Shown: positions 3,780-5,451, counted from the stretch's first letter. The stretch: 5,451 nucleotides of DNA from a virus (IMGVR_UViG_2541047751_000012), one strand, 5' to 3'. A program made the numbers and translations. The notes: generated by a model not told the origin, from the letters alone.

Positions 3780-4544
3780 TCAATCTCCATTGGTATCAAT
3801 GTTTACAGCCTGACAAGACTCTTTGAGCACCCAGTCAATAGCGTCTTTCCATGCCTCTGTTTCGACTGGTGGATTTTCACGCTTAACCTGTTCATAGAAG
3901 CGCACTGCTTTAACCAGTCCTTCCGGTACTACTGGTGATGGCTGTTTAGCTTCTAAATCAGCAATTCTGTCAACCACGGCATCGACAGCATCTGAAAAGC
4001 CGAACCAGTTGCTCCACTCCGGCTCATCCCCGGTTGCTGCAAAGTACATATCTGCTAAAGCAGATTCAGCATGGTCACGCTCGTTAATGAGTTGCTCTTC
4101 GCTTTTCTCCAGTTCAGCAATACGCTTACCCCCATCCGAGATAACACCTTCGTAATACTCACGCTGCTCGTTGAGTTTTGATTTTGTCTCCTCAAGCTCA
4201 ACTCTCAGCTTCCCAACAGTAAGAGCAATATCCTCGTTCTCCTGGTCGCGGCGTTTTATGTATTGCTGGTTTCTTTCCCGTTCATCCAGCAGTGCCAGCA
4301 CAGTAGCCGGATTGGCTGCGGCGATGAATTCAGCATTGGCCTGCTGTTCCATTTGGAAATCTTCATCGAAACCGCTTTCTGGATGCGCTCCTTCAATTCT
4401 GCAAATGGGAATATATCCAGCAACTTCACGATGAATTAGCGCATAATCACCATCAAATCGGCTCTCTCCATATTCGAGCGACCACTCACCACACGTTGCT
4501 TTTTCTGCCGCTTCACGCAGTGCCTGATAGTTAATTTCGCTCAC
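3780..4544 (-). CDS. Ead/Ea22-like coiled-coil protein, 254 aa
   Basis: Long ORF whose N-terminus (MSEINYQALREAAEKATCGEWS) matches my recollection of Ea22-like prophage proteins, with a central charged, coiled-coil-like region (ELEETKSKLNEQREYYE...ELEKSEEQL). The start codon is GTG (4544-4542), overlapping the upstream TraR-like stop (GTGA), with GAGAGG upstream. Confidence 0.8.
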   Translation of the reverse strand: MSEINYQALREAAEKATCGEWSLEYGESRFDGDYALIHREVAGYIPICRIEGAHPESGFDEDFQMEQQANAEFIAAANPATVLALLDERERNQQYIKRRDQENEDIALTVGKLRVELEETKSKLNEQREYYEGVISDGGKRIAELEKSEEQLINERDHAESALADMYFAATGDEPEWSNWFGFSDAVDAVVDRIADLEAKQPSPVVPEGLVKAVRFYEQVKRENPPVETEAWKDAIDWVLKESCQAVNIDTNGD

Positions 4545-4762
4545 TTCGAACCTCTCTGTTTACTGATAAGCTCCAGATCCTCCTGGCAACTTGCACAAGT
4601 CCGACAACCCTGAACGACCAGGCGTCTTCGTTCATCTATGGGATCGCCACACTCACAACAATGAGTGGCGGATATAGTCTGGTAGTTCAGACGACGCATT
4701 TTTATTGCTGTATTGCGCTGTAATTCTTCAATTTCTGATGCTGAATCAATGATGTCCGCCAT
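4541..4762 (-). CDS. TraR/DksA-family C4 zinc-finger protein (lambda orf73-like), 73 aa
   Basis: The translation has the TraR-type motif C-x2-C-x14-C-x2-C (..CCECGDPIDERRRLVVQGCRTCASCQ..), which aligns by eye with F-plasmid TraR (..CEACGNPIPEARR...CVECQ..). The size and the position in the early-left region are consistent with lambda orf73. Confidence 0.85.
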   Translation of the reverse strand: MADIIDSASEIEELQRNTAIKMRRLNYQTISATHCCECGDPIDERRRLVVQGCRTCASCQEDLELISKQRGSK

Positions 4763-4810
4763 CTTTCATTAATCCCTGAATTGTTGGTTAATACGCTTGA
4801 GGGTGAATGC

Positions 4811-4845
4811 GAATAATAAAAAAGGAGCCTGTAGCTCCCTGATGA
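4811..4845 (-). terminator. Putative Rho-independent terminator on the minus strand
   Basis: On the minus strand: AGGGAGC-tacag-GCUCC(uu) hairpin (5 G/C-rich pairs plus possible G-U and A-U) followed directly by UUUUUUAUUAUU. On the plus strand the hairpin is preceded by an A-run instead, so it is orientation-specific to the operon direction. Located 16-50 nt after the stop of the 4861 gene. Confidence 0.5.
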
Positions 4846-4860
4846 TTTTGCTTTTCATGT

Positions 4861-5076
4861 TCACCGTTCCTTAAAGACGCCGTTTAACATGCCGATCGCC
4901 AGGCTTAAATGAGTCGGTGTGAATCCCATCAGCGTTACCGTTTCGCGGTGCTTCTTTAGTACGCTACGGCAAATGTCATCGACGTTTTTATCCGGAAACT
5001 GCTGTCTGGCTTTTTTGATTTCAGAATTAGCCTGACGGGCAATGCTGCGAAGGGCGTTTTCTTGCTGAGGTGTCAC
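4861..5076 (-). CDS. Hypothetical small phage protein; 71 aa if started at GTG 5076, or 93 aa if started at ATG 5142
   Basis: The ORF is clear from 4861; the start is ambiguous. The ATG at 5142 has no Shine-Dalgarno and gives a Cys-rich, odd-looking N-terminus (MHFSGSGLHILCAYACRHGACS). The GTG at 5076-5074 overlaps the stop of a 27-aa ORF (GTGA), matching the coupling pattern of the rest of the operon. The C-terminal 70 aa look like a normal soluble protein; I do not recognise the family. Confidence 0.5.
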   Translation of the reverse strand: MTPQQENALRSIARQANSEIKKARQQFPDKNVDDICRSVLKKHRETVTLMGFTPTHLSLAIGMLNGVFKER

Positions 5077-5156
5077 TGAACAAGCCCCATGTCGGCAAGC
5101 ATAAGCACACAGAATATGAAGCCCGCTGCCAGAAAAATGCATTCAGTGGTTGTCAT
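5073..5156 (-). CDS. Candidate 27-aa hydrophobic small protein (MTTTECIFLAAGFIFCVLMLADMGLVQ)
   Basis: Short ORF missing from the six-frame track. Its ATG (5156-5154) overlaps the TGA of the truncated upstream reading frame (ATGA) and its TGA overlaps the GTG of the next gene (GTGA). The product is dominated by one hydrophobic stretch of transmembrane length. No strong Shine-Dalgarno (GAGAGA at about 6-7 nt). Confidence 0.25.
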   Translation of the reverse strand: MTTTECIFLAAGFIFCVLMLADMGLVQ

Positions 5157-5241
5157 ACCTGGTCTCTCTCATCTGCTTCTGCTTTCGCCACCATCATTTC
5201 CAGCTTTTGTGAAAGGGATGTGGCTAACGTATGAAATTCTT
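5153..5241 (-). pseudogene. 3' remnant (about 28 codons) of a minus-strand phage gene, apparently truncated by the IS insertion
   Basis: An open frame (..EFHTLATSLSQKLEMMVAKAEADERDQV*) runs from the IS boundary to a TGA at 5155-5153, with no start codon context at its 5' end. That end abuts the IS left terminus at about 5242. The identity of the disrupted gene is unknown. Confidence 0.3.
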
Positions 5242-5451
5242 TGAACCGCCCCGGGAATCCTGGAGACTAAACTTCCTGAGAAAGAGGTAAACAGGATGAC
5301 TAAAAATACTCGTTTTTCCCCCGAAGTCCGTCAACGGGCAGTCCGTATGGTTCTGGAAAGTCAGAGCGAATATGACTCACAATGGGCGACAATTTGTTCC
5401 ATTGCTCCAAAGATTGGCTGTACGCCGGAGACTCTGCGTGTCTGGGTTCGC
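5242..5451 (+). mobile_element. IS3-family insertion sequence, left end (IS629/IS1203-like from memory); continues beyond the window
   Basis: A terminal sequence TGAACCGCCCCGGGAATCCTGGAGACTAAACTTCC begins at 5242, followed 54 nt later by an orfA-type gene. This matches my recollection of the IS629 left inverted repeat and leader. The change in gene orientation and content at this point is abrupt. Confidence 0.8.
5296..5451 (+). CDS. IS3-family transposase OrfA (helix-turn-helix), N-terminal 52 codons; partial at window end
   Basis: ATG at 5296 preceded by GAAAGAGG at about 8 nt. The translation [52 protein letters not shown] matches the IS629-type OrfA N-terminus as I recall it. Open to the end of the window. 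Confidence 0.85.

Follow-up and report, generated by a model that had tools for sequence, protein, structure and literature searches.

Does the DNA between orf63 and orf61 in the left early operon of lambdoid prophages encode the beginning of a single 93-aa protein, or does it encode a separate 27-residue peptide that is followed by a 71-aa protein? We examined this question in a window (the term is used here for the whole stretch of 5,451 nucleotides that was analyzed), the minus strand of which is the left (pL) early operon of a lambdoid prophage, in its exo-xis region. On this strand lie integrase (1-1143), excisionase (1133-1369), several accessory genes, an Ea22-like gene (3780-4544), orf73, which encodes a TraR/DksA-type protein (4541-4762), the orf61 homologue (4861-5076) and orf63 (DUF1382), of which the C-terminal 29 codons and the stop are left (5153-5241, minus strand). 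The orf63 remnant was identified by translation, by a PGAP pseudogene annotation and by alignment with lambda. It is truncated by the left end of an IS3-family element (5242-5451, plus strand), which begins with TGAACCGCCCCGGG, has its orfA ATG at 5296 and is called "IS3 family transposase" by PGAP; from the terminal sequence, we take this element to be IS629-like. Homology to other phages ends at 5241, that is, at the IS junction, and the N-terminal portion of orf63 in E. coli HM670 is found beyond the IS. Because the IS lies inside orf63, the pL operon of this prophage is broken just upstream of the region in question. E. coli O2:H1 HM670 matches positions 4500-5243 with 100% identity, and phages ev017 and PhiR57_1 match positions 4500-5241, also with 100% identity; phage lambda is about 97% identical over the latter stretch. 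The exo-xis region, which influences Stx-prophage induction in EHEC, has been the subject of the Wegrzyn and Donaldson laboratories (PMC8614690, PMC6213356, PMC4195576). It is not needed for plaque formation (PMC10695390), which is what an accessory early gene would show.

The small ORF, which we propose as a new gene, consists of 27 codons plus TGA (5073-5156, minus strand) and encodes MTTTECIFLAAGFIFCVLMLADMGLVQ; its lambda counterpart is located at 30925-31008 (complement, stop included). At the upstream end, the small-ORF ATG (5156-5154) overlaps the orf63 TGA (5155-5153) in an ATGA (5153-5156, minus strand). At the downstream end, the small-ORF TGA (5075-5073) overlaps the GTG (5076-5074) of orf61 in a GTGA (5073-5076, minus strand), and this 4-nt overlap reads ATGA in most relatives, lambda included. 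An earlier note on this DNA had claimed the ORF together with both overlaps, and its coordinates and sequences were exact on re-check. The note had also held that such an arrangement fits the stop/start coupling of the operon; a 4-nt overlap is indeed annotated elsewhere, for example, between orf73 and the Ea22-like gene (4541-4544). Upstream of ATG 5156, at -14 to -8, there is a weak Shine-Dalgarno-like GAGAGAG (5164-5170, minus strand), the anti-SD duplex of which (-5.6 kcal/mol) is comparable to that of orf73 (-4.9 kcal/mol). By a rough post hoc estimate, an open frame that bridges both genes with both 4-nt overlaps would arise by chance in about 0.7% of cases. The comparative evidence described below shows that the joined open frame and its overlaps are more than chance.

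The earlier note had proposed a comparison of synonymous and non-synonymous changes as a check. Therefore, two sets of loci were collected. The first contained 227 loci from IMG/VR and genomes, and the second, independent set contained 117-120 metagenome contigs, which were anchored on a 26-mer inside orf61 and outside the small ORF. The combined set comprised 344 loci, mostly with 95-100% identity. Every distinct allele contributed a single count, and the counts were limited to the non-overlapped part (5152-5077). To obtain the expectation, 27% synonymous, every possible single-base change was considered, with weights that reflect the transition bias seen in the data. In the first set, 15 of 29 alleles were synonymous in the small-ORF frame (p=0.004), as were 10 of the 13 alleles seen at least three times (p=0.00025). 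The metagenome set alone gave 9/19 (p=0.04), and 8/12 when an allele had to be seen twice or more (p=0.004). When all 344 loci were combined, 15 of 32 alleles were synonymous (p=0.011), as were 12 of the 20 that were seen at least twice (p=0.0016); divergence is low in this test, the alleles number only 32 and some singletons are sequencing errors. Nine alleles were seen at least seven times, and eight of these are synonymous and one (T3A) is non-synonymous.

The excess was observed in this sense frame alone. The frame of the 93-aa extension showed none over 5142-5077 (9/32 in total, 5/20 for alleles seen at least twice and 2/13 for alleles seen at least three times), and the third sense frame also showed none (7/32). 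As positive controls, the 71-aa form of orf61 gave 28/63 (p=0.0026) and orf73 gave 43/102; the synonymous excess in the small ORF is as strong as that in these two genes. Furthermore, the identical peptide is encoded by 83 of 97 metagenome copies, and the good-quality loci among the 344 contain no indels in the small ORF. Three gapped loci were artefacts, namely deletions every 60 nt or error-rich assemblies. The small ORF of lambda is intact, and its three substitutions relative to the window are all synonymous. D22 of the peptide is variable (D22G in genome L244). Judged by these alleles, the small ORF is under frame-specific purifying selection, and it is highly probable that it is a selected coding gene.

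Gene boundaries are the typical sites of recombination in lambdoid phages, and the mosaic junctions in this region are informative about both ends of the small ORF. Homology to the window starts exactly at ATG 5156 in nine IMG/VR loci, in 12 metagenome loci and in the genome L243. At those junctions, a phage Dam methyltransferase gene stands in for orf63, its TGA overlaps the small-ORF ATG, and the small ORF is preceded by a strong GGGAGG (anti-SD duplex -10.3 kcal/mol). In total, four upstream gene ends that differ from one another retain the ATGA, namely three C-terminal variants of orf63 (…DQV, …DPA and …RELA) and the Dam methyltransferase. L244, for example, carries an orf63 variant of 89% identity and the overlap is kept. 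At the other end, an unrelated 250-aa gene in L109 stops 7 nt ahead of the same 71-aa start and the small ORF is absent. Thus, the mosaic evidence indicates that the small ORF behaves as a module of its own and that the 71-aa start is real.

The small ORF is, on the other hand, not present in every arrangement. L087 (Escherichia sp. E1V33) has a DndB-family gene upstream, its junction is inside the small ORF and 14 nt are missing; an ATGA start that overlaps the upstream stop then reads the 93-aa frame through to orf61. One lineage carries an IS66 insertion within the small ORF. Divergent DUF1382 genes (75-81% identity) are directly followed by Ea22-like genes with no small ORF between them, and the small ORF also stands behind the Dam methyltransferase without orf63, so that its partnership with Orf63 (DUF1382) is not an obligate one. 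The exceptions of L109, L087 and the DUF1382/Ea22-like pairs mean that the small ORF is not obligatory for either neighbour. It should be mentioned that the slot between orf60a/exo and orf61 is a variable cargo site, in which orf63, the Dam methyltransferase (L243), the DndB-family gene (L087; Pfam E=1.9e-46, and DndB by PADLOC) and the 250-aa family-less protein (L109) were observed.

The start of orf61 was then considered. The orf61 homologue in the window is a three-helix protein of 71 aa (RefSeq WP_000188870.1; 4861-5076, minus strand), which is the PGAP call in the identical genome HM670. The 93-aa ORF of the mechanical listing runs from ATG 5142 to 4861; GTG 5076 is its codon 23, and the N-terminal extension, which we reject, is MHFSGSGLHILCAYACRHGACS (5077-5142, minus strand). 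The earlier note had claimed that ATG 5142 lacks a Shine-Dalgarno sequence, and this was borne out: the best anti-SD duplex there is only -3.8 kcal/mol and is located 13 nt upstream. In 286 of the 344 loci, the G at 5076 is replaced by A, so the start codon is ATG; it is GTG in the window and ATG in lambda. AlphaFold2 predicted a confident three-helix bundle for the 71-aa form (pLDDT 88, pTM 0.73), and for the 93-aa form it gave an unchanged core with pLDDT of 44-52 for residues 1-20; the alignments were shallow in both cases. The model that the earlier note preferred, a 27-aa ORF followed by a 71-aa protein, is well supported on these comparisons by the frame-specific selection without indels, the junction at ATG 5156, the kept ATGA and the alternation of ATG and GTG at 5076. 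The true Orf61 would accordingly be the 71-aa protein, as the L109 arrangement and the low-confidence residues 1-20 also suggest.

If instead the 93-aa model were correct, translation would start at ATG 5142 and the 27-aa ORF would be a chance alternative frame. This start is a frequent choice of gene callers (family P0002, 93 aa, 1695 member sequences) and is annotated for Phi24B (vb_24B_7c), for 933W and in many phage records. Moreover, L087, in which the ATG overlapping the upstream stop reads this frame into orf61, is a case of the kind that the earlier note had named as contrary to its model, namely a broken small ORF with an open 93-aa frame. Such a case was found once; the other broken copies are rare, degraded or mosaic. 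However, the extension shows no synonymous excess (only 2 of 13 alleles seen at least three times) and has neither a usable Shine-Dalgarno sequence nor a confident fold. PGAP chooses a different start, V23 of the 93-aa protein is ATG in most relatives, and mosaic variants retain the 71-aa part alone. We therefore regard the 93-aa model as very unlikely. The conservation could also be due to a gene on the opposite strand or to an RNA element rather than to the sense peptide. An antisense ORF of 51 aa (5089-5244, plus strand) shares its third-codon positions with the small ORF, and 12 of 32 alleles are synonymous in its frame (p=0.05); this excess arises because the two ORFs have their wobble positions in common. 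Codon-phase tests thus need an antisense control. The alleles that discriminate between the two frames favor the sense frame by four to zero, and one of them, present in nine loci, abolishes the antisense ATG. In addition, the antisense ORF would extend across orf63, whose protein has a solved structure, and a consensus scan found no promoter-like site on the plus strand across the small ORF (the single plus-strand site was at 4788-4817). As for RNA, the region is less stably folded than shuffled controls (z=+1.66) and an Rfam search of the region gave no match. An antisense gene was rejected on the discriminating alleles and a structured or known RNA on the fold and Rfam results, and conservation from either source is considered extremely improbable.

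A different kind of rival accepts that the small ORF is translated and denies a role to its product. In other words, the act of translation would carry ribosomes to orf61, and the peptide itself would be functionless and degraded. This explanation suits the stop/start overlaps of 4 nt at both ends and the exact fit of the ORF in the gap. It is also in line with the weak Shine-Dalgarno sequence of orf61 (anti-SD duplex -4.7 kcal/mol at GTG 5076 in the window and -3.9 kcal/mol in lambda), with a peptide that has no homologue or family, and with mosaics in which orf61 directly follows another gene and the ORF is dispensable. A relay of this type would, however, constrain only the start, the stop and a stop-free frame, and yet the frequent alleles are synonymous by eight to one, the peptide is identical in most metagenome copies and, as described below, its hydrophobicity is beyond chance. 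We consider this explanation improbable, though less so than the two above.

We therefore return to the small ORF as a gene with a product. The 84-nt ORF is probably a genuine coding cistron of the pL early operon, which lies between orf63 and orf61 and would be chain-coupled to them. From the features of the DNA, we infer its translation, the coupling, the membrane location of the peptide and any effect on the host. In the proposed mechanism, ribosomes that end translation of orf63 (or of the Dam methyltransferase gene) at UGA would restart at the overlapping AUG (AUGA), and the weak GAGAGAG would assist this restart. The 27-residue peptide would be made, and termination at the UGA that overlaps the AUG or GUG of orf61 would hand ribosomes over to orf61, the own Shine-Dalgarno sequence of which is weak. 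Given a hand-over at both overlaps, orf63, the small ORF and orf61 would form a translationally coupled chain. Soon after infection or induction, the single helix C6-V26 would then most likely insert in the inner membrane, and there the peptide would affect a membrane target of the host or the phage.

The earlier note had suggested a transmembrane check, and the peptide was found to be strongly hydrophobic (GRAVY 1.62). The 21-residue window C6-V26, which is long enough to cross a bilayer, has a mean Kyte-Doolittle value of 2.42, and its dG summed on the Hessa scale is about -0.1 kcal/mol; these are simple scales and not a trained predictor. Just 0.4% of the 27-aa windows taken from all stop-free stretches in the window match this hydrophobicity. 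The peptide has a net charge of -2 and contains no K or R residues; the basic residues that flank a helix according to the positive-inside rule are thus absent from the 27-aa peptide, which is atypical for a membrane anchor. On balance, the peptide may well be membrane-embedded.

Family searches with the peptide gave no assignment. A Pfam scan with E up to 10 found no family, the one NCBIfam match, to MtrF, was sub-threshold (E=0.034), the best PHROGs match had E=0.68, and PADLOC and PDB sequence searches gave no match. The peptide also did not match the Kil family or families of type I toxins (Hok, Ldr, TisB, Ibs and similar). A type I toxin would come with an antisense RNA, and the absence of plus-strand promoter-like sites across the small ORF in the consensus scan is weak evidence against one. 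Kil is a soluble protein of about 47 aa, which acts on FtsZ via ZipA and is not a hydrophobic helix. In lambda, Kil is a small peptide of the pL operon that blocks FtsZ ring assembly (PMC3961180). The small ORF is like Kil, with which the earlier note had compared such peptides, in that it encodes a small early pL-operon peptide, and is unlike Kil in its hydrophobic helix and in having no Pfam family. A toxic or Kil-like action of the peptide is unlikely. Known small single-helix proteins of the inner membrane include AcrZ, MgtS and KdpF. Inner-membrane proteins of E. coli of this kind (<50 aa, single helix) that were missed by annotation have been described by Hemm et al. 2008 (cited in PMC4195576). 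The peptide resembles this class in size, in its one hydrophobic helix and in falling below gene-caller limits, so that it is recognisable only by conservation and start-site context; it differs in that it is phage-encoded, is without the usual basic flanks and shows no family similarity.

The distribution of the small ORF was surveyed. A 131-nt query centred on it matched 3142 of 5426 complete E. coli genomes; in 3140 of these, query coverage was at least 80%, and the matches amount to 4248 places altogether. About 58% of the complete E. coli genomes thus carry copies. The small ORF is present in phages lambda, 933W, VT2-Sakai and Stx2 II, and in the first three of these the peptide is identical to that of the window. 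In tblastn searches, the peptide matched 176 phage records, all of which are E. coli lambdoid or Stx phages except for one weak chance match, and 138 of the 176 encode the identical peptide; the lambda match spans 30928-31008. On the plasmid side, there were 38 plasmid or mis-assigned records. Only near-identical copies of the E. coli lambdoid type were obtained, and no more distant relatives were detected by tblastn against phages and plasmids. The families of orf61 and orf63 are equally narrow. On the evidence of these searches, the small-ORF family is confined to Escherichia-type lambdoid phages and has no deep conservation.

Several apparent exceptions were traced to the data. Seeming orf61 homologues of 50-80% identity were rejected as deeper relatives, being assembly or frameshift artefacts or mosaics. 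In the stored sequences of L106 and L131, one-base deletions occur every 60 nt, which is a file or line-end artefact; these deletions create false "divergent" protein homologues such as P0069. A scan of genome contigs gave mostly lambda spike-in contamination. Assemblies labelled Shewanella, Bradyrhizobium, Paenibacillus, Kitasatospora, Oceanobacillus and others (L088-L101) carry the region, and their matches are 214 bp instead of 213 bp, with an extra base as in lambda. These are most likely contamination with lambda control DNA.

The earlier note had called the 27-aa ORF unannotated. This is correct, as it was annotated in none of the records inspected; the 71-aa form is already in RefSeq and PGAP (4861-5076). 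Under the 71-aa model, the small ORF falls in a 77-nt "intergenic" gap. Gene callers of the Prodigal type have a minimum gene length of 90 nt, and the locus is an example of how a gene of 84 nt goes unannotated. The peptide sequence was not found in the searched literature, in which we also found no initiation-site profiling study of lambda. If the small ORF is a gene, lambda, the most intensively annotated phage, gains one early gene, as do its relatives.

Three incompatible models of orf61 are in circulation, namely the lambda annotation (30839-31024), the 93-aa model and the 71-aa model. The 93-aa ORF from the ATG equivalent to 5142 is annotated in several GenBank phage records, and the start equivalent to 5076 is used by PGAP/RefSeq and in PhiR70_1. 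In lambda, orf61 is annotated from a start inside orf63. Furthermore, lambda and the lambda-derived L001, L003 and L248 have one extra A in the A-run that corresponds to positions 5010-5016 of the window. This extra A shifts the frame of lambda Orf61 after residue 22, and PGAP flags the gene as "frameshifted". Thus, the annotated lambda orf61 is a chimera of frames: 10 codons are out of frame in orf63, 22 are out of frame through the small ORF, 22 are genuine Orf61 codons and the remainder is a frameshifted tail. The annotated orf61 and 93-aa homologues (Phi24B vb_24B_7c and the L0070/L0071 region of 933W) use the same DNA as the small ORF in another frame. The small ORF is a separate cistron, and the published orf61 frame upstream of residue 23 is, by the comparative data, not under selection. 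We conclude that the lambda orf61 model and the 93-aa model of Phi24B, which are used in much of the literature, are mis-drawn.

This conclusion affects how published data are read. The Phi24B Orf61 has been taken as a protein of 93 aa, and its residues 1-23 did not fit models consistently (PMC8614690); orf61 was insoluble when over-expressed (PMC6213356). Both observations are consistent with a wrong N-terminus, and a mis-drawn start, if our model is true, could explain them. The gene is expressed early from pL and has been linked to lysis/lysogeny phenotypes (PMC6213356, PMC8614690). Since the published orf61 models span the whole small ORF, their deletion mutants would remove it. For lambda, the coordinates and the published account (PMC6213356) indicate that deletion of the annotated orf61 would take away the whole small ORF. 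If so, delta-orf61 mutants lost two genes, plus, in lambda, the last 20 nt of orf63. It is possible, albeit doubtful, that the membrane-embedded peptide of lambda and Stx phages may be a functional early effector, which would explain part of the phenotypes attributed to orf61 (lysis/lysogeny bias, delayed induction of Stx prophages and effects on host survival), or that it is a helical ligand in the cleft of the Orf63 dimer. Modelling predicts a short helical ligand for the hydrophobic cleft of this dimer (PMC10869804). The co-occurrence of the small ORF with Orf63 (DUF1382 genes) gave no support for the peptide as this ligand.

Some further observations were made on the neighbouring sequences. 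For the 71-aa protein, PGAP occasionally gives the name ZapA; this identity was rejected because PF05164 scored 16.1 bits against a cut-off of 23.8. NCBIfam gave no family for the protein, and no PDB entry matched its three-helix model at E up to 0.001 in a Foldseek search. A homeodomain identity was rejected, since it had no Pfam support at threshold and none from Foldseek. Residues 51-66 (GFTPTHLSLAIGMLNG) resemble the core of an ankyrin repeat (phmmer against a PDB ankyrin, E=3e-4; DARPins, 0.03-0.07).

Downstream of orf61, there is a second small ORF of 31 aa (MNMKSKIIRELQAPFLLFAFTLKRINQQFRD; 4769-4864, minus strand), the start of which overlaps the orf61 stop (GTGA in the window and ATGA in lambda). 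It crosses an intrinsic terminator hairpin (4822-4840, minus strand) and showed no synonymous excess (12/36). Ribosome profiling of lambda by Liu et al. 2013 yielded the new ORFs orf2311 (7 aa) and orf2313 (31 aa), according to a review (PMC8614690); the 27-aa ORF is not among the new ORFs that the review gives for the region, which counts against its translation. [quoted passage not shown] The 31-aa ORF at 4769-4864 is probably orf2313.
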